Position numbers and translations under genes: made by a program
From: Escherichia virus TH54
Direction: 5' to 3' (one strand)
Length of the DNA: 64,000 nt
Sequence record: MT446420.1
Part shown: positions 10,806-47,845 of the stretch, piece after piece
Layout of the letters: each line of letters opens with the position of its first letter
Position numbering within the stretch: the stretch's first letter is position 1
Notes under the pieces: model-generated
What the model was told of the DNA's origin: nothing
Databases searched by the model: none
What the model saw: the letters and a program-made list of their open reading frames with translations, nothing else

Positions 10806-12866
10806 CTACGAAAGGAATTTAGGAGGAATAGCTTCCAAATTAATACAACTAGCAAGAATACCAAGACCTTGATTGACTTTCTTCGTCACCCCGGAGGATG
10901 CAAACGATGCAAAGTCAACAGATTCTACTGGCTCTTCTGATTCCTCGCCCTGATAAACGACAAGCTCACCAGTTTCCATCAACACATCACCATCATAGAT
11001 AACTGCATTTTCATCCAGTTGGTCAGTGGTCTGGATATCAGCTTCCAGCATTTTGACGTTCGCGTTTCCTTTATAAGAAGCATCCGTAATTTTGGTAATC
11101 TTAACTACAGTTCCACGTGGAAGAATAACTTCCTGCTCGGATGGGTTGCCTGACAATTCCCCAGGAACAATTACGTTAATTAAGTCTGCCCCAGAAATTT
11201 TCCAACCGACATGAATCATTGCGTTGTCTGGGTTTGCACCTGGGATATTTGGTAAAACAATTTCGTCATCAGCCTGGAAAGATGTCCCGTCGCGATAGTC
11301 CTGATGAACTGCGGCCATAGCAACGTTCGCCACCCAGCCACCAAAGATAATTGGTTTAAATGATGTTGATACATAGTTCCTAAAATAAAATAATTTCGAC
11401 TGTTTAATTTTATTAAATGTAGGAACGTTTAAATATTGACCACGCCAAAGAGTTGTATTAGGTGGCAACTTATGTCCAATTTCAAAGGCCGAATCCAATT
11501 CCTTAATTGTTTCGACAACTCTGTCTAGATTTAGGAATTCGGCGTCTTCTTCATAATAATTACCCATCAAATAATTATTAATATCGACATAGTTTGCTCC
11601 ACAATAATCTGCAATTGCTTCACGCTGGCCATAATGGAAACGGTTGTCAGTATACCCTGCTGTGAAATTAAGAGTATTTTCTGATGCTTCTTCTGCAAAG
11701 TCTTTAACTGCAACACGAATGGCGCTTGTGTATTCTTCTTCCCAGAGCGTGGCTGCATAAGTGGCTGCATCCAGGTTAGGAGGAGCATCATTCATTTTTC
11801 TTTCGATAAATGCGGCTTTGCGAAGGTTAAGAATCTCTGCACATGATTCGGCAAAAATCTGCATCTGCTTCATACTACCAACTGGAGCACGTTTAAGTTC
11901 GCGATGCATACGGTTAAAAATTGGGTCGGAGTCTTCAACACGAATTTCTTCTTTCCAAACACCATTTGCACGCATAGCCGTATCTGCTGCGCGCATACGA
12001 GCCATAGTATTCGTTTCGGAAGGTCGAACAAAAATTTCCAGTTCTTCATAATCATCGATAAGTTCTGCTGTAGCCGGTCGACTAAACTTAGCAGCTTCTG
12101 CATCAATTTCGTCCCAACCTTCTGGCACGGAATCACTTGGAGCGTACTGGGCTTGTGCAATAGCTCGGCGGCTGATTTTTGTTTTCTGTGCAACAGCAGC
12201 ATCGGTCTTTTTGTTTGCTGCGTCAATCAGAACTTCGGCTGCGATTTCTTGTTTGGAGACTTGCGCGCCTGTATCTTTATTGGTGAATACATCACCAACT
12301 TTAGTTTCAACTTTTTGATATTTCTCAGGGACTGGTGGCATACCATCAACCGAAAGCAGGTCAACACCCTTTTTGTACATAATTACATAAGCGTTCTTTT
12401 TACCGAGGCCGGAAGCATTCGGAAGAACATGATAACGCCCGCTGGTTTTCATTTGAATCAGTCGATTCATAATACGAATAACAGCTTGGTCTTGCCCTTT
12501 CATCTTTTTGGATGGGAAACGGAACAAGACTACATCAGGTTTGCCTAGTTTAATGCTTTCCCAGACTGTAACAAAAATCAGGTTAATCGCATCAAGAGGT
12601 TTTTCACCTAGACCACCCTTCAGAGGAACAGCATGGCCATGTGAAGTCCCGGATAACAGGAATACCTCGGCAATTGCATCGCCACGTTTATATTGTTTAA
12701 CTGTTTCTTTGCCCGTGAATTGCATCAAACGGGCCATAAGAGAATTGGTCCCAGGAACACCGAATTGCCAAACCTGCGGGACCTTGTATTTTGGATTCAT
12801 ATTAATGACAGGATAACCGAAGGCTTCGATATATTTGTCAAAGAGTTCATTTAATTGTTCAGACAT
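10806..12866 (-). CDS. alt: Alt ADP-ribosyltransferase (packaged RNA polymerase-modifying enzyme)
   Basis: 686 aa (T4 Alt 682 aa); shared blocks e.g. KVETKVGDVFTNKDTGAQVSK and KISRRAIAQAQ match T4 Alt from memory. Confidence 0.9.
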   Translation of the reverse strand: MSEQLNELFDKYIEAFGYPVINMNPKYKVPQVWQFGVPGTNSLMARLMQFTGKETVKQYKRGDAIAEVFLLSGTSHGHAVPLKGGLGEKPLDAINLIFVTVWESIKLGKPDVVLFRFPSKKMKGQDQAVIRIMNRLIQMKTSGRYHVLPNASGLGKKNAYVIMYKKGVDLLSVDGMPPVPEKYQKVETKVGDVFTNKDTGAQVSKQEIAAEVLIDAANKKTDAAVAQKTKISRRAIAQAQYAPSDSVPEGWDEIDAEAAKFSRPATAELIDDYEELEIFVRPSETNTMARMRAADTAMRANGVWKEEIRVEDSDPIFNRMHRELKRAPVGSMKQMQIFAESCAEILNLRKAAFIERKMNDAPPNLDAATYAATLWEEEYTSAIRVAVKDFAEEASENTLNFTAGYTDNRFHYGQREAIADYCGANYVDINNYLMGNYYEEDAEFLNLDRVVETIKELDSAFEIGHKLPPNTTLWRGQYLNVPTFNKIKQSKLFYFRNYVSTSFKPIIFGGWVANVAMAAVHQDYRDGTSFQADDEIVLPNIPGANPDNAMIHVGWKISGADLINVIVPGELSGNPSEQEVILPRGTVVKITKITDASYKGNANVKMLEADIQTTDQLDENAVIYDGDVLMETGELVVYQGEESEEPVESVDFASFASSGVTKKVNQGLGILASCINLEAIPPKFLS

Positions 12867-12924: not shown

Positions 12925-14466
12925 TTATTTTAACCCAGTCTTTGACCAGTCGCCAAATACATCTTCGAATGTGTCTGCATGGTCTTTATCGAAACGGAAC
13001 CCTTTGATAATCGGCAGGAACAATGCAACCGTATTATCTTTACGAGTCTCGGAAGTCACCCAACCATTACATTCACAGTCAGCAATCATTCCAACCAATT
13101 CACCTTTACGAGCTTTAACCATCAAGGCTTCACGGTCCATTTCATGACGCTTCTCAATCGGAATAGTAACCCATTTTTTGGTTTTCTTATCTTTGACTTG
13201 AGTTGTGTCTTTAAAACCAGAACCACAGTTATTCGTAATCTTACCACAAGAAGAACGAAGCACAACACCGCCAATCTTATTCGGGTCTTTATCGTGCTCG
13301 TAATATCCAATGATTTCCATTGCAATGTCAATTACTTCTTTGAACTTGTACAAGTTCTTGGAGCGCTTGTTTTCCCAAATCGATGCCATGTTCTTAAGGA
13401 TAATACCTTCAAGACCTTCATCCACATATTTCTTATAGATAACCTTCGCTTCATCGAGATTGTTAACAACATGGTTTTCAATCAGAATCATGCGGTCAAA
13501 ACCGTGCAGCACCACGTTATCTGCAATCATTTTTTCCAGAACAGCAAAACGCACATCGTATTTCAACGGATTGAGAATCTTAACATCAGAATAGACTTCA
13601 ATCAGCGGAACATAATCCCAAACCTGGAATTTCATGCAAGAAGCTTCTGCTGCAGAAATAGTTCCTTTCAATGATTTGTTTGCCAGACCATTTGAAAAGG
13701 TTCTTGATTCCGCGAATTCCGCGAATTCTTTTGCCTTACTAAGCTCAGGCATATCGTCAAAAAGGAAGCTCAAACCATCATTCTGGGGAGCTATTTTCTG
13801 TTCATGATATACTAACTCGCCGTCAATCAAAACGCCCTCAGGATGTCTCTCACGCGCTTCACGGGTAGCTTCAATCAATTCCTTTTTAAGGAGGTCAAGC
13901 TTGAGGTATTCGTTGCCAGCTCGGGATAACAATCGAACATCATCCAACTCATCGCCACGAACTTCTGCAAAACACCGAGCGCCGTCGGCTTTCAATTGTG
14001 CAAAGGCCGGGAACTTAATGTTCTTGGCAATACCTGCTTCATCATAAGAAGAAGCAAGCATCTGCGGTTGTTCAGGAATTAAACCTTTCCAAACCTTATT
14101 TGCAATCGATACGGATGCTCCGCATTCCAGGTCACGCATCATCACACGACGCAGAACTTCAACGTCAGCTTTTTTACCATCTGCAATGTAGCCAGATAAT
14201 TCCTCGATTGCCGCATTACCTGTTAATTTGCGACGGGCTAATGTGAATTCGATAAAGCCAAGCATATCATCGATATTCAACATACCAAAGCTTTGAGTCG
14301 TTGCCCCAGGTTTTGGCCATTTCTTGATATAGAACTGGATGCCTTTGGAATATGTCAAACGATACACGCGTTTAAGGGTTTCATTGTCAGAATACGATTC
14401 CAGAATAGCTTGTTTCTCTTTAGTGGAATCGGTTGCAGCAATTTCATTTAAAATATCTAAAATCAT
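12925..14466 (-). CDS. 30: ATP-dependent DNA ligase gp30
   Basis: 513 aa; N-terminus MILDILNEIAATDSTKEKQAILE and most internal blocks match T4 DNA ligase (487 aa) from memory. Confidence 0.93.
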   Translation of the reverse strand: MILDILNEIAATDSTKEKQAILESYSDNETLKRVYRLTYSKGIQFYIKKWPKPGATTQSFGMLNIDDMLGFIEFTLARRKLTGNAAIEELSGYIADGKKADVEVLRRVMMRDLECGASVSIANKVWKGLIPEQPQMLASSYDEAGIAKNIKFPAFAQLKADGARCFAEVRGDELDDVRLLSRAGNEYLKLDLLKKELIEATREARERHPEGVLIDGELVYHEQKIAPQNDGLSFLFDDMPELSKAKEFAEFAESRTFSNGLANKSLKGTISAAEASCMKFQVWDYVPLIEVYSDVKILNPLKYDVRFAVLEKMIADNVVLHGFDRMILIENHVVNNLDEAKVIYKKYVDEGLEGIILKNMASIWENKRSKNLYKFKEVIDIAMEIIGYYEHDKDPNKIGGVVLRSSCGKITNNCGSGFKDTTQVKDKKTKKWVTIPIEKRHEMDREALMVKARKGELVGMIADCECNGWVTSETRKDNTVALFLPIIKGFRFDKDHADTFEDVFGDWSKTGLK

Positions 14467-14476
14467 TAATCACCTC

Positions 14477-14758
14477 TTAGTCGTTGACTCTATTATATGC
14501 CACATCTTCCAAAAGCAAATCCAGACGCTTATGATAAGAGAACACAAATCTCATTCGCCCATCTGGTTTAAACTTAGACATAAAGTGAACATAGATAAAC
14601 CCTTGCTCAACACATTCACGCCAAACCGGATGGTCTTTGGCTGGGTTAATATCAAACGAGTAATCATGATTCACATGACGAATAAACTGATTAACATGAC
14701 CATAATCCATGGTAGTAGTAGGACCATAATCAGAAATAGTATGAACGACAAACATCAA
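14477..14758 (-). CDS. hypothetical protein (30.1 position)
   Basis: 93 aa ORF between ligase and the HAD-like gene; tightly packed. Confidence 0.55.
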   Translation of the reverse strand: MMFVVHTISDYGPTTTMDYGHVNQFIRHVNHDYSFDINPAKDHPVWRECVEQGFIYVHFMSKFKPDGRMRFVFSYHKRLDLLLEDVAYNRVND

Positions 14759-15579
14759 TTACCCCCTTGGCCGCCGGTCGGTTGATTGTACCAATATTCA
14801 ATACCAGTACCCACACGCTGGCCATATTGATATGGATATGCTGGATTATAACCAGGAGTCCATGGTTGACCTGGTTGCCAGCCTTGTTGCATTTGTTGTT
14901 GAAGACGGCGAGTTTCACGAAACAGCTCTTCCAGTTTACGGAGTTCATCTGGGGTGAATTCTGGTTTGACCGGTTCATCTTTGTGTTTCAGTTTAAGCTG
15001 TCCAGCAACATCGTCCCAATTAAAAACTTTGGAAGCTGTTTTAGGAATAGCATCACGTTCGCCGCGGGCCATCCAATAAACAGGAACCTCAAGAATTTCA
15101 CTTGCATGGTCGCAATGGTGTGCAAGGTCATCAATATAACAAATGACATTATATTTGTCTTTTGCCTTCTGAAATAACTCCTCTTTAGAGGCTGTATGAC
15201 CACACATCATCACTTCTTTAAATGCCCCAGGGAACAAAGCATTCAGGTTGAATTGACGATTCAGACGAGCATCAATAGAATCACCCAGGGCTGTTACAGC
15301 CACAAAATCATATTGCTCTTTGAGGTTATTAATAACCCTTAATGCATCCGCATAAGGAGACAAATAGCGAATAAAGTCCGAACAGTTATATTTTTCAATT
15401 AACTGCGCGCCTAACTCTTCATCACAATTGAAGAGTTTACCAGGGGTCACAAATTTTTCATCCTGAATCATCTTAAGGATGTGTTCCAGGGGTAAATTAT
15501 ATTTTTGAGCGAAATAAGGCAAGCCAGACTGCCATGACAAACATACGCCATCAATATCTGTTAAAATAACGGGTTTCAT
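14755..15579 (-). CDS. HAD-superfamily phosphatase-like protein with low-complexity Q/P/Y/G-rich C-terminal tail
   Basis: N-terminal MKPVILTDIDGV matches the DxDG(T/V) HAD catalytic motif; C-terminal 50 aa are QQQMQQGWQPGQPWTPGYNPAYPYQYG... Confidence 0.6.
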   Translation of the reverse strand: MKPVILTDIDGVCLSWQSGLPYFAQKYNLPLEHILKMIQDEKFVTPGKLFNCDEELGAQLIEKYNCSDFIRYLSPYADALRVINNLKEQYDFVAVTALGDSIDARLNRQFNLNALFPGAFKEVMMCGHTASKEELFQKAKDKYNVICYIDDLAHHCDHASEILEVPVYWMARGERDAIPKTASKVFNWDDVAGQLKLKHKDEPVKPEFTPDELRKLEELFRETRRLQQQMQQGWQPGQPWTPGYNPAYPYQYGQRVGTGIEYWYNQPTGGQGGN

Positions 15580-16034
15580 AATGCATCTCTCAATTGGTTA
15601 AGTATGTCAATAAATTCTTGTTCAGTCAATATTGTATCATGAACAGTAAGGTGGCTCGCCATCGAATGCTTTAAAACTTTGCCCTTTGTGGCTTGTAATG
15701 CGTCGCGGAATCCTTTGTTTTGGAGCGCTGCTTCAAAATATGCATTTGTATACAACTCTTTCCATGATGTAGAGTATCTTGAAAAGGGAATTCCAAGCCA
15801 GAAAAGCGTCCCACGGTCCGCAGCTCTTGCATAAGCTCTTCCACTTTGCTGGGCGGCCAATCCGGACATCCCAAATATACGTTTTTGTTGTTCAACATTT
15901 CTCACCTTGCATCCTTGTAGGAAGCCTTCAAGACCTCCAAACTGGATACCCTCCATAACAAAAGGCCATTTAGCAAAGTTACTTAATGCACATGATGGCC
16001 ACGGAAAATTACTTCTGATTTCTAACTCAGACAT
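15576..16034 (-). CDS. hypothetical protein (30.3 position)
   Basis: Track ORF 15576-16181; ATG at 16034 (MSELEIRSNFPWP...) avoids overlap with the upstream gene. Confidence 0.5.
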   Translation of the reverse strand: MSELEIRSNFPWPSCALSNFAKWPFVMEGIQFGGLEGFLQGCKVRNVEQQKRIFGMSGLAAQQSGRAYARAADRGTLFWLGIPFSRYSTSWKELYTNAYFEAALQNKGFRDALQATKGKVLKHSMASHLTVHDTILTEQEFIDILNQLRDAL

Positions 16035-16239
16035 CTTTGACACTGATAATCTTGGTTGCATACCACATGCCATGGTCTGGCAATCTTTCTTTAATTGACC
16101 GCCCGCGATATGTTTTTCGCATAACAACAGTTTTAATAGCATCTTCATCGCAAGCATATGGCGGGGATAAATCAATAACACGATAAGTCACTTCAACCAT
16201 TTCCAAGCCAAACAGCTTTTTAAATAATTTATTAATCAT
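16027..16239 (-). CDS. hypothetical small protein, tandem paralogue A
   Basis: 70 aa; about 50 percent identical to the adjacent 16249-16461 product (shared EMVEVTYRV...IISVKD). Confidence 0.6.
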   Translation of the reverse strand: MINKLFKKLFGLEMVEVTYRVIDLSPPYACDEDAIKTVVMRKTYRGRSIKERLPDHGMWYATKIISVKDV

Positions 16240-16248
16240 GAAGGTTCC

Positions 16249-16461
16249 TTAAATATCTTTGACACTGATAATCTCTACATCAGCCCAATGACCATAACCA
16301 GGTAGACGGTCTTTAATAGATAATCCGCCGTCAGATTTCAGCATTTTAATTGTTTTAGTATATGGTTCAATATTTCGGGCCCATGGACTTACGTCAGTCA
16401 CGCGATAAGTCACTTCAACCATTTCTGTGCCCAAAATCTTCTGAATCAATTTCTTAAACAT
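16249..16461 (-). CDS. hypothetical small protein, tandem paralogue B
   Basis: 70 aa; paralogue of 16027-16239; a 20-nt identical DNA stretch at the 3' ends. Confidence 0.6.
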   Translation of the reverse strand: MFKKLIQKILGTEMVEVTYRVTDVSPWARNIEPYTKTIKMLKSDGGLSIKDRLPGYGHWADVEIISVKDI

Positions 16462-17869: not shown

Positions 17870-17895
17870 AAAAAAAGACTCCCGAAGGAGTCATT
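17870..17895 (-). terminator. hairpin terminator (GACTCC-CGAA-GGAGTC) followed by U-run
   Basis: Perfect stem with CGAA loop and a 9-nt T-run on the minus strand directly after an ORF stop. Confidence 0.65.
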
Positions 17896-18247
17896 TGATA
17901 ATTGTTTTATAGGTTACTTCAGCTGTATAGAAGTTTTTGGCTTTCATTACAATAGCTTCACCCTTTGGATTTGCCTCAATCCATTCTCTGGCGCGTTTAT
18001 GTGCTTCCAGTTCAGTAAGCAAACCAGAACGTTGACAGCCCCGGTCTTGTGTACCAGCTTCACTTAAGAAAGCGACAAGATAAATTGCATCGTCATACGG
18101 TTTCGCAGGTGGTGTGTATATCGGAGGGCTTGGTGGAACATATGCAGCAGGATGATGTTCCGGAATTGCATTGTATGGCTCCAGACCAGGCGCTGCATAC
18201 GATGCTCCACGCGGTGTAGTAAACGTGTGATTGTATCTATCGTTCAT
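17891..18247 (-). CDS. hypothetical protein with Pro-rich N-terminal region
   Basis: 118 aa; AGGAAAAT SD; terminator hairpin at its 3' end. Confidence 0.55.
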   Translation of the reverse strand: MNDRYNHTFTTPRGASYAAPGLEPYNAIPEHHPAAYVPPSPPIYTPPAKPYDDAIYLVAFLSEAGTQDRGCQRSGLLTELEAHKRAREWIEANPKGEAIVMKAKNFYTAEVTYKTIIK

Positions 18248-36192: not shown

Positions 36193-36861
36193 TCAAAGTG
36201 CTTGAAGCGTTATTTGACAGTTTTTAACGGTCTCGATGAACAATTTACGAGCTTCAAGAGAATCGATATTTAAGATTTTCTTATAGGCATTTAGTTTGGT
36301 TGAATACTTTTCCCAAACCAAGTCGTTAGTCTGTTCATCATGTTTATTTATAATATCTAAAAATGAATCAAGCAAACAAAACGTTTCAAATGAGATAACA
36401 TTCGATTGGAGAAGTTTGAAAATATAACTTGTGTTTACTTTAGTATTATACTCGAAAATCTCTTGAAGCGATTTGACTTCGACTTTCTTACTGAAGTAAT
36501 AGATATTCTTTATATCATCTTCGTATACTTGTTTAATTCTTTTAAGTCTGCCAATGTATTCACGATAAAATATCAGAGCATCGGCATCGCTTATATCACC
36601 TATCCATGCATCCTGGTTCGCGACCAGGTTTGACATGAATATTAACGTTAATTCTTTGAGAGTGTACTTATCGCTAAGCTTTTCGAAAAAATACTTATCG
36701 CGACGTTTTTGATAAGCACTATCGGAGATTCGCATGGTCCAGTTATATTTGATAATATCATAACGACCCGAAAAATGCTGTTTGATGGATAAGTACAGTT
36801 GGTATACTGATTTACCATTTATATATCGGTTGTTATTTGGAGGCATGCGAATCGTAATCAT
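36193..36861 (-). CDS. 59: helicase loader gp59
   Basis: 222 aa; near-colinear with T4 gp59 (YQKRRDKYFF, LVANQDAWIGDISDADAL). Confidence 0.9.
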   Translation of the reverse strand: MITIRMPPNNNRYINGKSVYQLYLSIKQHFSGRYDIIKYNWTMRISDSAYQKRRDKYFFEKLSDKYTLKELTLIFMSNLVANQDAWIGDISDADALIFYREYIGRLKRIKQVYEDDIKNIYYFSKKVEVKSLQEIFEYNTKVNTSYIFKLLQSNVISFETFCLLDSFLDIINKHDEQTNDLVWEKYSTKLNAYKKILNIDSLEARKLFIETVKNCQITLQAL

Positions 36862-37178
36862 AACAAAAAGTCCAGCGTATTAGTTTTCTGTGTACGAGAC
36901 ATACTCGGACGAAGCAGGTTATCATCATAGGCTTCGTTCATAATCTTATCAATGATTCCCGCAGGAATGTATCGCGCAAAATTACCTTCAGGAATTCCAC
37001 GTTCTTCCAACCAGGCAGTCGCAGCTTCCAGATAAGACATTTCAGTTGACTCAACCATGGCTTCAATATCAAGCCCGTTTTGCTGCTTACTAATCGCCCC
37101 GGAAGGCGATTCAGTTTTCTGTGTATCGAAATTAACTAAAGAGGACATCATAGAGCTCCACAGCTTCGGTTTTTTCAT
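36858..37178 (-). CDS. 33: late-transcription accessory protein gp33 (start uncertain)
   Basis: Track ORF 36858-37244 overlaps dsbA; C-terminal YLEAATAWLEERGIPE...TLDFLL fits gp33; size about 100-106 aa. Confidence 0.6.
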   Translation of the reverse strand: MKKPKLWSSMMSSLVNFDTQKTESPSGAISKQQNGLDIEAMVESTEMSYLEAATAWLEERGIPEGNFARYIPAGIIDKIMNEAYDDNLLRPSMSRTQKTNTLDFLL

Positions 37179-37409: not shown

Positions 37410-38354
37410 TTAATAAAATTCAGCAATATTTGCAGTTAGTTTAGACAGACCAGACTTAACAAAGTAAGGATAAACTTTACTTTTGGCTGGGATAACGTAA
37501 TTATTATATCGTTCTAAGATTGAAGCGGATATTTCCGTTGGAATAAAGTCCATATCAATCAACAATTGGTTTTCACAGAATCTATTATATTGCTCTTCTG
37601 TTAAAAGCGTTTTCAAAACGTCATGGTCGTAATAGTTGAGTGCAATTTGTTCAAGCTCACCTGCGCGGGTCGGCGGAGTACGTTCACCTTCTTCATGAGT
37701 GTAATAAAAATCACCGCGAACTTTGATGCTCGACACGTTATCTTTTTTGTCGCCTTTGACAACCTTGGTCACGCAATCCATAAGAGCATCACCTGATTTA
37801 GTTTTGACATATTTTTTCTGCATCGGTGACCATTGTTTCACCCCAGGGAATTTATGCAGCTGGGTAAAGTCACCATCCGAAGAAACAATCATAACCGGAT
37901 GCCCGAGACTGGTGAGCAACTTCGTTAATACTGCAATATGGTCGTCGGCCTCAATTTTATCCATATTCATCACGATGTAAGGCATGTGTTTTTCCATTTC
38001 ATCAATGATGATGTGCATGGCAGCATGTAGGCCTTCCCAATCAAATTGTGACTCTTCACGGGCTTTTGCACGGTTTTTCTTATAATAATAAGATTTCGTG
38101 CGGCGCCAATAACCATTTTTCGAATTATCAACACAAATAATTGGGACTGTATAACCAAGCTTTTTAAACTGTACAATGTTTTTTCTGATAGAGTTCAGAA
38201 CCAGATGTCTGGTCATTGCGGTTGTCACCTTAGGGAAGCCTGCGTCTTTACCGAATTCCTGGAAGGCTGCTGCCATGATAAGCTGGCTAAAATCGAGTAA
38301 GAGAAAACCATCTTTTTGACGGTCTTCTTCAGGGAGTAAAAAATCTAAATTCAT
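37410..38354 (-). CDS. rnh: RNase H (5'-3' exonuclease, FEN-1 family)
   Basis: 314 aa; matches T4 RNase H blocks (GYWRR, YYKKNR.KAREES, SSDGDFTQLHK). Confidence 0.9.
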   Translation of the reverse strand: MNLDFLLPEEDRQKDGFLLLDFSQLIMAAAFQEFGKDAGFPKVTTAMTRHLVLNSIRKNIVQFKKLGYTVPIICVDNSKNGYWRRTKSYYYKKNRAKAREESQFDWEGLHAAMHIIIDEMEKHMPYIVMNMDKIEADDHIAVLTKLLTSLGHPVMIVSSDGDFTQLHKFPGVKQWSPMQKKYVKTKSGDALMDCVTKVVKGDKKDNVSSIKVRGDFYYTHEEGERTPPTRAGELEQIALNYYDHDVLKTLLTEEQYNRFCENQLLIDMDFIPTEISASILERYNNYVIPAKSKVYPYFVKSGLSKLTANIAEFY

Positions 38355-44224: not shown

Positions 44225-47200
44225 ATGGCTACTTTAAAATCGATACAATTTAAAAGAAGTAAAATAGCAGGAGCCAAGCCTACTGCAGCTCAGTTAGATG
44301 AAGGTGAACTGGCAATTAACTTAAAAGATAAACTTATTTTTACTAAAGATGATGTTGGTAATATTATCGACCTTGGATTTGCTAAAGGTGGTACAGTTGA
44401 TGGCAATGTTACTATTAACGGCCTTTTAACTCTTAAAGGTGATTACACTCAAACTGGTGGAATGCAAGTAACAGGGGATATTTACTCTGGAGCTGGGATG
44501 AGTGCAGCTGTTTACCGCGCAAGAAATGGTTCTTTTTATTCTCGTGCGCAAAATGACACGTCTAATGCCCACTTGTGGTTTGAAAATACAAATGGTTCTG
44601 AACGAGGAGTGCTATATGCCAAACCACAACTTGAAAATGAAGGCACTATTACCATGCGCGTTCGTCAAGGTACAGCAGCAGGTGCCGGCAATATAGAATT
44701 CCATTTTATTTCTTCTGGTGGTGGTATTTTTCAGGCCCCTATTTTAAAGGCTACTACGTCAATTAACGCGCCTACTATTAGTGTCAATAGTATAAGCCAT
44801 GATTCTAAATCGTTCGGTACCTACGACAGCCAATCTTTGGTTAATTATGTTTATCCAGGTACAGGCGAAACGAATGGTGTAAACTATCTTCGTAAAGTTC
44901 GTGCCAAATCCGGCGGCACTATGTGGCATGAGCTTTGTACTGCTCAATTAGGCCAAGCTGATGAAATGTCTTGGTGGACAGGCAATACTCCACAGTCAAA
45001 GCAATACGGTATTCGAAATGATGGCCGAATGATAGGTAGAAACAGTCTCGCATTAGGTACTATGACTACTGATTTTCCATCTAGTGATTATGGTAATGTC
45101 GGGGCACTTGGAGATGTGTTCCTTGCTTTAGGCGATAATGGCACAGGTTTACGTTATCAAAAAACTGGTGTATATGATTTAGTTGGTTCTGGATTATCCG
45201 TTGCATCTATTACTCCCGATAGTTTCCGTAGTACTCGTAAAGGTTTATTTGGACGTTCAGAAGACCAAGGCGCAACTTGGATTATGCCGGGCACAAATGC
45301 CGCATTTTTATCAGTTCAAACACAGGCTGATGCGAATAATGCAGGTGATGGTCAGACGCATATTGGCTATAACTCCGGTGGAAAAATGTCGCACTATTTC
45401 CGCGGTAAAGGTCAAACCAATATTAACACTCAAGAAGGCATGGAACTTAACCCAGGTATTCTTAAACTGGTAACTGGCGCAAATAATGTAATGTTTTATG
45501 CCGATGGTGGTATTACTTCCACTAAACAGTTATCGATTTATAATGGTGTTTATCTTGCGGCTAATAACTCAACAGCAGGTTTGACTTTTTCAGCAACTAC
45601 CACGATTGATGGCACCAAACAAATTCTTTGGGAAGGTGGCACTCGTTCAGGGCAGAATAAGAGTTATGTAACTGCTAAAGCATGGGGTAATGCTAATAAT
45701 GCGACTGGTGATAAATCTCGTGAAACTGTGTTTGAAGTTGGCGATGGACAAGGATATCATTTTTATTCACAACGTGTGGCTCCTGCTTCAGGCTCAACAA
45801 CAGGCCCAATTCAATTCCGTATTGCTGGTGCTTTATTAACTTCTGGTGGTATTACATCGTCTGGTTCTATTGTTACAGAATCAAGTCTAGTTGCTAATAA
45901 CGGATTGTCTGTAAATGGTCAAGCCAAATTTGGCGGAACCGCTGATGCATTGAGAATTTGGAACGCCGAGTATGGTGCTATTTTCCGCCGTTCGGAAGCA
46001 TCACTGCATATTATCCCGACTCCTAAAGATGCAGGTGAATCTGGTGGAATAAGTAATCTTCGCCCATTAAGTATCAGCCTTAATAATGGTATGGTGCAAA
46101 TGCGTCATTCCGTTACATTAGGTGACGATGGCGTTGGCGGCAATATGATTACTGTGGATAACGACAATAAACTTGTTGTTTTGACTTCTAATTCACGTAT
46201 AAGTCCAAATTTCCGTATGCAAATAGGCCAGTCATCTTATATTGATGCTGAATGCACTGACGCGGTTCGTTCAGCTGGGGCTGGTTCATTTGCTTCACAG
46301 AATAATGAAAACGTTCGTGCGCCATTCTATATGAATATTACTAGAACTGATACTAGTACTTATGTTCCTATTTTAAAACAACGTTATGTTCAAGGAAATA
46401 GCTGTTATTCTTTAGGAACTTTAATTAATGGTGGTAACTTTAGAGTCCATTATCATGAAGGTGGTGACGGCTCGACAACCGGTGCAGCTGTTGCTGATTA
46501 CGGATGGGAATTTGGTAGAGATGGTTCTTTTAGAACGCCTAATAAACTAGTAGTTAATAGCGTCACAATTGGCACTGATGGCAATATCACGGGCGGTTCT
46601 GGTAATTTTGCTAACTTGAACACTACTTTAGACCGTAAAGTTAATGTTGGCACTTGGTCTGGTAGTTCAACTGCAGGTTGGTATAAATTTGCTACTGTAA
46701 CTATGCCACAGTCAGTATCAACCGCTCAATTTAAGATTATAGGTGGTAATGGATACAATGTAAATTCACCAGAACAGGCTACAATTACTGAAGTAGTTCT
46801 TCGTACCAGCAATAACAATCCTAAAGGTATTAACGCAACTTTATGGGGCCGCACGGGTAATGGATTTACTAATATAGCAACAATTAATACCTCCGGTGAT
46901 GATTATGATGTTTATCTGTATGCTGGGACTTATGCAGACAAACTTATAGTTGAATATGACGCCACAGAAAATACCAGTAATATTTCGGTAATTGGACTTA
47001 ATGGTGGGTATCAAACACCTGTAGCAGAATTACCTACCGGCCATCTGCGTGGACAAGTGTATATGATGTACTCTGATGCTCAGATACCTTATCCGGTTGG
47101 TGCCCCGATTCCATGGCCAAGTGATTCAGTTCCTGCTGGATTTGCTTTAATGGAAGGTCAGACCTTTGATACTGCAGCTTATCCTAAGCTTGCTGTTGCA

Positions 47201-47845
47201 TATCCTACAGGTACTATTCCGGATATGCGTGGGCAGACTATCAAGGGTAAGCCAAGCGGTCGCGCAGTGTTGAGTGCAGAAGCTGATGGTATTAAGTCTC
47301 ATAACCATGGCGCATCTGCTTCAAGTACTGACTTGGGTACTAAAACCACATCAAGCTTCGACTATGGTACTAAAACATCTTCAAGCTTTGATTATGGTAC
47401 TAAGACCAGCAATACAACAGGTAACCATAACCATACAGTAAGTGGTACTACCAGTTCAGCCGGTGCTCACCAGCACGCTCGTTCAGGTCCGCAGCTTTCT
47501 AACGGTATATCTACTAATATTTTCCCTGATGGGTACAGTGATGTTGGAACCAACTACAACTCAAAATTTAGTGGAACAGTTATAGGTAGCTCGGTGCCGT
47601 GTATCATTGGTAAAACATCAAATGATGGTGCTCATACTCACACTTGGTCAGGTACTACTAGCACTACAGGTAACCATGCTCATACTGTAGGTATTGGTGC
47701 TCATACCCATACGGTAGGTATCGGTGCTCACACTCATACTGTAGCGATTGGTTCTCACGGACATACTATCACTGTAAATAATACAGGTAATACAGAAAAC
47801 ACGGTTAAAAACATCGCTTTTAACTATATCGTTCGCTTAGCATAA
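44225..47845 (+). CDS. 37: long tail fibre distal subunit gp37 (receptor-recognising tip with His-box repeats)
   Basis: 1206 aa; C-terminal His-x-His repeats (GAHTHTVGI x3, GNHNHTV, GAHQHA) as in the iron-coordinating needle of T4 gp37; longer than T4 gp37 (1026 aa). Confidence 0.92.

Follow-up and report, generated by a model that had tools for sequence, protein, structure and literature searches.

Gene 30.2 of bacteriophage T4 is an early gene without an assigned function, located between the anti-DarTG gene (30.3/adfN) and the DNA ligase gene; its 278-aa product gp30.2 is uncharacterised. The NT5C 5'(3')-deoxyribonucleotidases (PF06941) combine a HAD core and a helical cap with a DxDGV motif I and a DD motif IV. 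Phage PBS1 encodes an enzyme of the NT5C type, the dTMP phosphatase Dtm (PF06941), a HAD nucleotidase by which the nucleotide pool is remodelled (PMC12697855). Disordered tails bearing short linear motifs are a familiar arrangement, and in T4 the gp45-binding loop of the DNA ligase and the C-terminal clamp motifs of gp43, gp33 and gp55 are short peptides of hydrophobic, acidic and aromatic residues that lie in disordered regions and tether enzymes to a hub (PMC6212786). Here we describe the gene 30.2 orthologue of Escherichia virus TH54 (sequence record MT446420.1; the stretch of 64,000 nucleotides analysed is called the window below). Its product joins what we predict with high confidence to be a capped HAD phosphatase to a C-terminal tail, which is a constrained modular element with a bipartite peptide common to phrog_38244, a family of small phage proteins; this relation was undescribed within the searches made.

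The gene occupies a minus-strand open reading frame (ORF; 14755..15579) with an ATG start and a stop codon within these coordinates, and encodes 274 aa from the N-terminus MKPVILTDIDGV to the C-terminus QQQMQQGWQPGQPWTPGYNPAYPYQYGQRVGTGIEYWYNQPTGGQGGN. By full-length similarity (PHROG 420; 67% identity to T4 over residues 1–270) and by its position upstream of gene 30.1 and the ligase gene, the protein is the T4 gene 30.2 orthologue in a Gaprivervirus (VR7/SP18-like) phage, and the order 30.3-30.2-30.1-30 is that of T4. Identity rises to 97.8% with VR7 gp30.2 and to 99.6% with the TH57 protein. Relatives were found in 1438 phage records; DNA-level matches are confined to Gaprivervirus genomes (VR7, SP18, VR20 and others; 92.6–98.9%). 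The annotation of PHROG 420 is 'unknown function'.

A preliminary description of this DNA, made from the sequence alone, had read the start of the protein as the DxDG motif of a HAD-type phosphatase, and this assignment held. In an alignment of 94 homologues the most conserved positions are the four HAD catalytic motifs (Table 1), and T96 of motif II is invariant among the 38 tail-bearing homologues. The AlphaFold2 model built on this alignment has a mean predicted local distance difference test score (pLDDT) of 89.5, with 94–98 across residues 1–190; its core has a Rossmann-like HAD fold in which T96 ends a hydrophobic strand (residues 91–96). Asp+2 and an acidic DD motif IV are the signature of the HAD phosphotransferase branch, as opposed to dehalogenases. 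Motifs I and II are separated by about 85 residues of helices, a C1 cap, which implies a small substrate. Motifs and model together identify the core, with high confidence, as a putative capped HAD phosphatase. The core by itself is a conventional HAD protein, and database records for some relatives already read 'HAD-like protein', 'hydrolase' or '5'(3')-deoxyribonucleotidase'.

The further suggestion of a nucleotidase-type enzyme is plausible. The structural matches with the lowest root-mean-square deviation belong to the NT5C family (PDB 2jao, 2i7d, 1mh9, 3bwv), and viral structural neighbours beyond the gp30.2 family are annotated as 5' nucleotidase or nucleotidase, but identity to NT5C enzymes is 15–20% and PF06941 stays below threshold for the query. 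The NT5C enzymes have about 170–200 aa, the size of the core, and no counterpart of the tail. A nucleotide is a plausible substrate by analogy, and the core may have the role of a nucleotide-pool enzyme. PBS1 Dtm offers a functional precedent for this possible role (the two proteins were not compared by sequence), although Dtm serves the synthesis of deoxyuridine-containing DNA, and T4-like phages have no need of such an enzyme for their hydroxymethylcytosine DNA.

The last 50 residues had been described as a low-complexity Q/P/Y/G-rich appendage, and the translated ORF bears this out: they are 66% Q+P+Y+G (Q 11, G 10, P 6, Y 6), with three W in addition. The best 40-aa Q/G/P/Y segment reaches 67.5%, the top value in the window, where 155 ORFs of 60 aa or more were compared and the second-ranked one has 47.5%. 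The compositional bias of the tail is real and exceptional for this genome. Tandem repeats and unusual base composition were looked for in the DNA of the tail region, and none were found. In the same early gene cluster, the ORF 17891-18247 (minus strand) encodes a 118-aa protein (phrog_17531) whose first 50 residues are P/Y/A-rich (PRGASYAAPGLEPYNAIPEHHPAAYVPPSPPIYTPPAKPY); this other disordered proline/aromatic region shares second place in the window for Q/G/P/Y richness.

The core is followed by a predicted charged helix, and a helix-like segment occupies the equivalent place in other tail-bearing homologues. The remaining residues 233–274 (42 aa) include 9 aromatic residues, 10 G, 6 Q, 6 P and 2 charged residues. 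Two AlphaFold runs predicted this tail to be disordered. In the first model it has pLDDT 50–70, with a short helical turn at 261–264; the second model, based on tail-bearing sequences only, is worse overall (pLDDT 71), and its tail has pLDDT 35–48. No sign of packing of the tail on the core was seen in either model.

Alignments of the tails contain two conserved islands (Table 1), separated by a variable spacer of 18 aa here, 31 aa in T4 and 1–6 aa in the phage 7-11 family described below. Equivalents of island 1 are WRTPGFNP in T4, KKWVNPGP in Karamvirus-type tails and PWRNPG in the phage 7-11 protein, and the island is often followed by [LFW]-[RK]-P-[WY]-Y. Island 2, here V256-GTGIEYWYNQPT, has the family pattern G-T-G-I-E-Y-[LW]-x-x-Q-P-T and was found in 19 of 116 family sequences (the query and 115 cluster representatives), namely in the T4-type cluster, in the Gaprivervirus lineage of the query and in Karamvirus-, Moonvirus- and CkP1-matching clusters. 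T4 gp30.2 has a homologous tail (FPWNTTWRTPGFNPYNPYHPYQTHPFQTWNYIKPGGIEYLYNRPTCGDNIFQGAF), and the tail is not unique to this phage. The two proteins share the core, the helix and an aromatic/proline-rich tail with both islands (WRTPGFNP and GGIEYLYNRPT in T4), whereas the T4 tail is rich in N, H, T, P and aromatic residues and ends in GDNIFQGAF, and that of the query is Q/G-rich. Compared with the cores, the tails of 41 proteins are enriched in W (2.8-fold), P (2.6-fold) and T (2.2-fold). The Q+G richness (28%) is specific to the Gaprivervirus lineage, the next highest tail having 17%.

Protein lengths in the family form two classes. The tail-less form of about 195–235 aa stops soon after a conserved NW(D/E)(D/E)(I/V) helix. 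It predominates in the outer lineages (those of Acinetobacter phages and others) and was seen in every environmental viral contig retrieved and in a small number of contigs from bacterial metagenome-assembled genomes (MAGs). The form of 250–350 aa has a C-terminal extension. Nothing in the genes around distant tail-less homologues pointed to a function. About 40% of family representatives carry the tail, and in a neighbour-joining tree of the cores the tail-bearing proteins constitute one large clade of Enterobacterales phages. Tail-less members are nested in this clade at at least six positions (P0006; P0007, P0008 and P0010; P0044; P0066; P0065; P0071; P0062 and P0068), and the tail-less P0006–P0010 have cores with 73–81% identity to the query. 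The nested tail-less members together with the tail-less outer lineages indicate an accessory module that was gained within the clade and repeatedly lost. The view of the tail as an unusual appendage is therefore upheld for its lineage-specific Q/G richness and its absence from many relatives, but not with respect to T4 gp30.2 and the other tail-bearing representatives; nor is the tail a structured domain present in all homologues, being predicted disordered and missing from part of the family. Tail-less core homologues in two or three tandem copies lie by rplQ/rpoA in large Bdellovibrionales and Rickettsiales MAG contigs (L081 3977-5266, L082 2631-4639), and the family is therefore not exclusively viral.

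Comparison of three Gaprivervirus genomes (synonymous divergence dS 0.3–0.66) gave 8–11 synonymous versus 1–2 non-synonymous differences in codons 233–270. The ratio of non-synonymous to synonymous divergence (dN/dS) is 0.017–0.048 for these codons and 0.013–0.047 for the catalytic core; judged by these ratios, purifying selection on the tail is as strong as on the core. The synonymous excess and the conservation of the islands across genera support translation of the tail in this frame. The seven Gaprivervirus tails vary chiefly by low-complexity insertions and deletions (indels) and by their variable ends: VR7 lacks QR, PSD2001 lacks QQM, and Escherichia phage 212 (L089 101-949) has an exact 8-aa duplication of NPAYPYQY (NPAYPYQYNPAYPYQY), hence the inter-island spacer expands by slippage. 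These indels aside, VGTGIEYWYNQPT is the same in all seven tails, and GWQPGQPWTPGYNPAYPYQYG differs only by one substitution each in VR26 and PSD2001. Over longer distances, T4 and the Karamvirus-type and Moonvirus-type tails keep both islands, and indels make the spacers differ. Such conservation is not expected of a neutral linker.

A profile of 16 tails was searched against 1.84 billion representative proteins. Besides one 30.2 protein it matched only P0116 (E 2.6e-4), which has 152 aa, lacks a HAD domain and contains GRKPYGVGTGIEYWYNQPTS. P0116 is a member of phrog_38244 (AEK81957.1; P0116–P0118), a family of small proteins encoded by phages like Salmonella phage 7-11 (Grimontviridae). The corresponding sequence is CPTCGSYIQGAHFCPGRSGSGIAYPGGGGIPWRNPGAGGIEYWYNQPTAIGGQTQ in phage 7-11 itself and GRPWRDFLSGPGGIEYWYNQPTALTGGQGGI in a relative. 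The shared stretch PWRNPGAGGIEYWYNQPTAIGGQ is attached to a different N-terminal domain, a helical region with a CPxC...HxC knuckle that is unrelated to the core of 30.2 proteins. Both islands are carried by the 7-11 peptide PWRNPGAGGIEYWYNQPTAIGG; they have the same order as in 30.2 but are nearly adjacent, forming PWR(N/D)..G-GIEYWYNQPT in a G/P-rich region, and are followed by a G/Q-rich stretch like the end of the query, NQPTGGQGGN. The 10-mer GIEYWYNQPT is identical in the query and in phage 7-11-like small proteins. When the tails were aligned with the 7-11 family by hhalign, 16 columns matched and no more (probability 94%, E 1.3e-7). This short match does not support homology of the 7-11 protein to the tail as a whole, as expected from a gene fusion. 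The third codon positions of the 10-mer agree between the 30.2 and 7-11 versions at 4 of 10 sites, and the identity is therefore kept at the peptide level rather than explained by recent DNA transfer.

The exact 10-mer had five matches in IMG/VR, from three Gaprivervirus genomes and two 7-11-like contigs, and the reversed 10-mer had none. In metagenomes, a degenerate pattern led only to 30.2 genes and 7-11-like genes, apart from two matches (L133, L134) that are uninformative or due to chance. The looser DNA pattern GIEYxxxQPT in IMG/VR was discarded, as its matches were mostly due to chance (e.g. the methyltransferase motif GIEYEFPQPTH). A tblastn search of the Karamvirus tail against phage genomes found 30.2 loci only, and no host copy of the peptide was detected by blastn against E. 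coli genomes or by tblastn against plasmids. Two small metagenomic ORFs, P0122 (L136 387-677) and P0123 (L135 227-469), end in EIGTGIEYLDNQPC and EVGTGIEYLSRQPTSK, i.e. (I/V)GTGIEYL(D/S)(N/R)QP(C/T), with marginal E-values of 0.05 and 0.2 and unrelated N-terminal parts; located on contigs shorter than 1 kb, they are possible further carriers of island 2, judging by these ends. The features generic to short linear motifs, conserved islands in poorly conserved disorder that recur on unrelated proteins, are thus all observed.

In 7-11-like genomes the peptide gene and the gene for the ATP-dependent DNA ligase overlap at the 3' end of the latter, and a 5'-3' exonuclease gene lies close by. Since 30.2 is also located near a ligase gene, two phage groups that are not related to each other both encode the peptide beside their ligase. 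For several other small genes the annotation of phage 7-11 notes a resemblance to T4-like phage genes, which suggests an accessory gene pool that is subject to exchange.

Sequence comparison and modelling thus yield a complete HAD active site, a disordered tail, constraint on the tail sequence and recurrence of its peptide on an unrelated protein. The reading to which we incline, with moderate confidence, is that gp30.2 is a capped HAD phosphatase that a portable docking peptide tethers to a partner. In an Mg2+-dependent reaction, Asp8 would serve as the nucleophile that accepts the phosphoryl group, with Asp10 as the general acid/base; Thr96 and Lys132 would hold the phosphate, and Asp150/Asp151 the metal. 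The substrate would be a small phosphomonoester, given the cap and the nearest structures, and most likely a (deoxy)nucleoside monophosphate as in NT5C deoxyribonucleotidases. Residues 201–274 would constitute an accessory module acquired within enterobacterial T4-like phages, a charged helix followed by a disordered proline/aromatic segment. The bipartite peptide W-(R)-x-P-G ... G-(T)-G-I-E-Y-(W/L)-Y-N-Q-P-T would most likely work as a short linear motif for docking and so hold the phosphatase to its partner, and the Q/G/Y-rich stretch would be a lineage-specific expandable spacer between and around the islands. The clamp-binding motifs of T4 may serve as a model for such working of the tail.

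The remaining candidates for the partner are a host protein conserved in Enterobacterales, or the ligase/nick-processing machinery. We tentatively suggest, as a possibility that we do not rate as probable, that unrelated phages of Enterobacterales, T4-like Straboviridae and 7-11-like Grimontviridae, put the same portable docking motif on different effector domains to target one conserved partner. A host protein or a component of nick sealing or DNA repair would be the most likely shared target, in view of the phage ligase gene that adjoins the peptide-bearing gene in each lineage.

Several observations weigh against the tethered phosphatase. For the subfamily and substrate, no Pfam family matched the query at E <= 1, and the best NCBIfam model, TIGR01428, reached 11.8 bits against a cut-off of 125.4; the search of HAD and nucleotidase models proposed in the preliminary description thus returned no curated model above threshold. 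The PDB sequences gave no significant match either, the best being 2jao, mouse cytosolic deoxyribonucleotidase (E 0.3 with the single sequence, 0.17 with a profile). Scanned singly, the 94 family members had weak, in all cases sub-threshold, Pfam matches to PF00702 (23 members), NT5C PF06941 (19) and HAD_2 (9); the best sub-threshold E-value of PF06941 among relatives is 0.002, and the query itself has no match. The HAD assignment therefore rests on the motifs and the fold, and the absence of a curated match reflects a limit of model sensitivity, not missing catalytic features. As for the tail, docking is inferred from conservation, and the AlphaFold models are uninformative on partners. Island 2 is degenerate in T2 (GDAGYFNRLT), P0119 of the 7-11 family lacks IEYWY, and other tail-bearing clades end differently (LRAYY, LRA[ST]F, LLNKVxND), so the peptide is not indispensable. 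Two protein families clearly share the peptide, while the two metagenomic ORFs are marginal. A literature search found no paper on gp30.2.

The tail might instead act in cis or between subunits, its islands folding onto the cap or active site (autoinhibition or substrate gating), or the helix together with the tail mediating oligomerisation, with no foreign partner. C-terminal regulatory tails are common in enzymes, the helix at 210–232 is confidently predicted straight after the core, and the whole tail is under purifying selection. We nevertheless consider such a role unlikely: the pLDDT of the tail is 35–70 across both models, with no sign of docking, close relatives with the 73–81% identical cores named above have no tail, and a core-specific intramolecular role would leave unexplained the same peptide on a protein without a HAD domain.

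Less likely still is a tail without sequence-specific function, that is, a slippage-prone disordered extension (an entropic bristle or solubility tag) derived from read-through or fusion. The loss of the tail in several lineages of the tail-bearing clade, the variation of its length and composition between genera, and the indels and 8-aa duplication within Gaprivervirus all agree with it. It conflicts with a dN/dS of codons 233–270 equal to that of the catalytic core, with the retention of the islands in T4 and in tails of the Karamvirus and Moonvirus types, and with the 10-mer that stayed identical in an unrelated phage protein despite synonymous divergence.

The preliminary description had called the tail prion-like and had suggested condensate formation or protein interaction as its function. 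Protein interaction, the basis of the docking reading, fits the islands, the purifying selection and the peptide on an unrelated protein, and a condensate has gained no specific support. A low-complexity domain that drives phase separation and concentrates the enzyme in a condensate would suit the 9 aromatic 'stickers' among G/Q/P 'spacers' in 42 residues with 2 charges, as well as the predicted disorder of the most Q/G/P/Y-rich segment of the window; enrichment in Q, G and Y and few charges are shared with yeast-type prion-like and FUS-type domains. According to the Michelitsch-Weissman definition, a Q/N-rich region reportedly has at least 30 Q+N per 80 consecutive residues. The best 80-aa segment here holds 14, the biased stretch of about 42–50 aa is short for a prion-like domain, and the term prion-like is not borne out. 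The Q+G richness is limited to Gaprivervirus, other tails having at most 17%, and composition-driven domains tolerate change, whereas the exact tail sequence is conserved and its peptides are shared across families. A condensate is very unlikely on these grounds.

Island 2 (IEYWY; IEYLY in T4) could also be a variant of the LDFLF motif that binds the sliding clamp gp45, which would place the phosphatase on the clamp beside the ligase. T4 ligase binds gp45 through EPEGLDFLFD, located in a disordered loop, as a short helix, and the C-terminus of gp43 is EKASLDFLFG (PMC6212786). The T4 ligase peptide KKEPEGLDFLFDA binds gp45 with a reported dissociation constant of about 10 uM. These precedents, the conservative match of T4 KPGGIEYLYN at all five positions with P-x-G ahead, the short helix predicted at 261–264, and the occurrence of [LIVM][DE][FYW][LIVMW][FYWL] in the window only in gp33 (C-terminus), RNase H (N-terminus) and gp30.2 agree with a clamp motif. 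In the T4 proteome, on the other hand, the pattern has 9 matches against 7.9 expected by chance. The four proven gp45 binders of T4 all read LDFL exactly, and IEYWY of the query, although in a disordered context, does not fit LDFL[FYL]. Karamvirus-type tails read IEYLN, and the T2 site is degenerate. Moreover, the peptide also occurs in phage 7-11, whose polymerase is of the Pol A type and in which no clamp is annotated within the 40 kb read (record positions 20,000-60,000, holding the replication genes). Attractive at first sight, the clamp motif is a minor rival for its chance-level frequency in T4 and the lack of an annotated clamp in the 7-11 region read, and we judge it marginally less credible even than the condensate. 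It is scarcely conceivable that the core has another HAD-fold activity (dehalogenase, epoxide hydrolase) or is an inactive pseudo-enzyme: L-2-haloacid dehalogenases and cis-epoxysuccinate hydrolases are among the top structural matches, but D10 (Asp+2) and the acidic DD of motif IV, invariant in 94 homologues, mark the phosphotransferase branch.

Table 1. Gene 30.2 of Escherichia virus TH54, parts of its product and adjacent genes (positions in the window)
Feature	Position	Strand	Evidence
Gene 30.2 orthologue, 274 aa	14755..15579	-	ORF list; PHROG 420, E 5.8e-79; identities to phage relatives
Predicted HAD phosphatase core with helical cap, residues 1-200	14980..15579	-	
HAD motif I, D8-I-D10-G-V (nucleophile Asp, Asp+2)	15544..15558	-	D8 and D10 invariant in 94 homologues
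HAD motif II, FVAVT96AL	15286..15306	-	T96 in at least 90% of 94 homologues
HAD motif III, K132	15184..15186	-	invariant in 94 homologues
HAD motif IV, YID150D151L	15124..15138	-	D150 and D151 invariant in 94 homologues
Charged linker helix, residues 205-232 (KPEFTPDELRKLEELFRETRRLQQQMQQ)	14884..14967	-	predicted helix 210-232, pLDDT about 91-95
Disordered Q/G/P/Y/W-rich tail, residues 233-274	14758..14883	-	low pLDDT; composition; dN/dS
Island 1, P239-W-T-P-G-Y-N-P; family pattern W-[RKV]-x-P-[GD]	14842..14865	-	tail alignments
Island 2, V256-GTGIEYWYNQPT268	14776..14814	-	in 19/116 family sequences; 10-mer shared with phage 7-11-like proteins
Gene 30.1 (DUF3045)	14477..14755	-	PF11243, E 1.8e-16; TGATG overlap
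Gene 30, ATP-dependent DNA ligase	12925..14466	-	PF01068, PHROG 114
Alt	10806..12866		neighbour beyond the ligase gene
Gene 30.3/adfN (NADAR), directly upstream	15576..16034	-	PF08010, E 4.3e-64

The gene order at the locus is 30.3(adfN)-30.2-30.1-ligase-alt. The T4-like loci L001-L016 have the order 30.2-(30.1)-ligase-alt, and L017-L027 show it with little change. The start of 30.2 shares ATGA with the stop of the upstream gene 30.3, and its TGA shares TGATG with the ATG of the downstream gene 30.1; such overlaps are a tight packing typical of T4 early operons. The product of 30.3 (PF08010) corresponds to AdfN, a NADAR DNA ADP-ribosylglycohydrolase that counters DarTG1 defence in T-even phages (PMC11257639). 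A longer GTG-started 30.3 ORF (to 16181) probably does not have the true start, the VR7 annotation being 459 nt. Further upstream, 16027-16239 and 16249-16461 (both minus strand) encode tandem 70-aa paralogues of PHROG 2042 (unknown function); VR20 and VR26 (L001, L002) have one copy at this site, which indicates a recent tandem duplication in this phage. In the metagenomic protein P0022 (302 aa) a 30.2 core is joined in frame to a 30.1-like DUF3045 domain (PF11243) that replaces the usual tail; this may be a genuine fusion or may result from a misassembly or a frameshift error.

Clamp-type motifs of this phage are TLDFLL at the end of gp33 (36858-37178, minus strand) and MNLDFLL at the start of RNase H (37410-38354, minus strand); the latter is presumably closer to the clamp motif than the N-terminus of the T4 enzyme. 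The ligase loop reads GLSFLFDD here (12925-14466, minus strand) versus GLDFLFD in T4. The phage 7-11 ligase (L100 1408-2496) is a minimal NTase+OB protein of 362 aa, and its alignment gap falls exactly at the disordered clamp-binding loop of the T4-type ligase. The lowest-entropy real coding segment of the window lies in the gp37-like long tail fibre gene (44225-47845, plus strand) and consists of HxH repeats, which we take to be of the kind present in the T4 gp37 fibre tip.

The complete set of HAD phosphatase motifs gives gp30.2 a concrete biochemical starting point, and the shared peptide turns a vague 'low-complexity tail' into a testable hypothesis for two protein families of unknown function. 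If there is no partner, gp30.2 would be an ordinary accessory enzyme with a variable tail. Should there be a partner, the peptide would represent a new motif for interaction between phage and host or with the replisome, directed at a hub, of host or phage origin, that several enterobacterial phages target.

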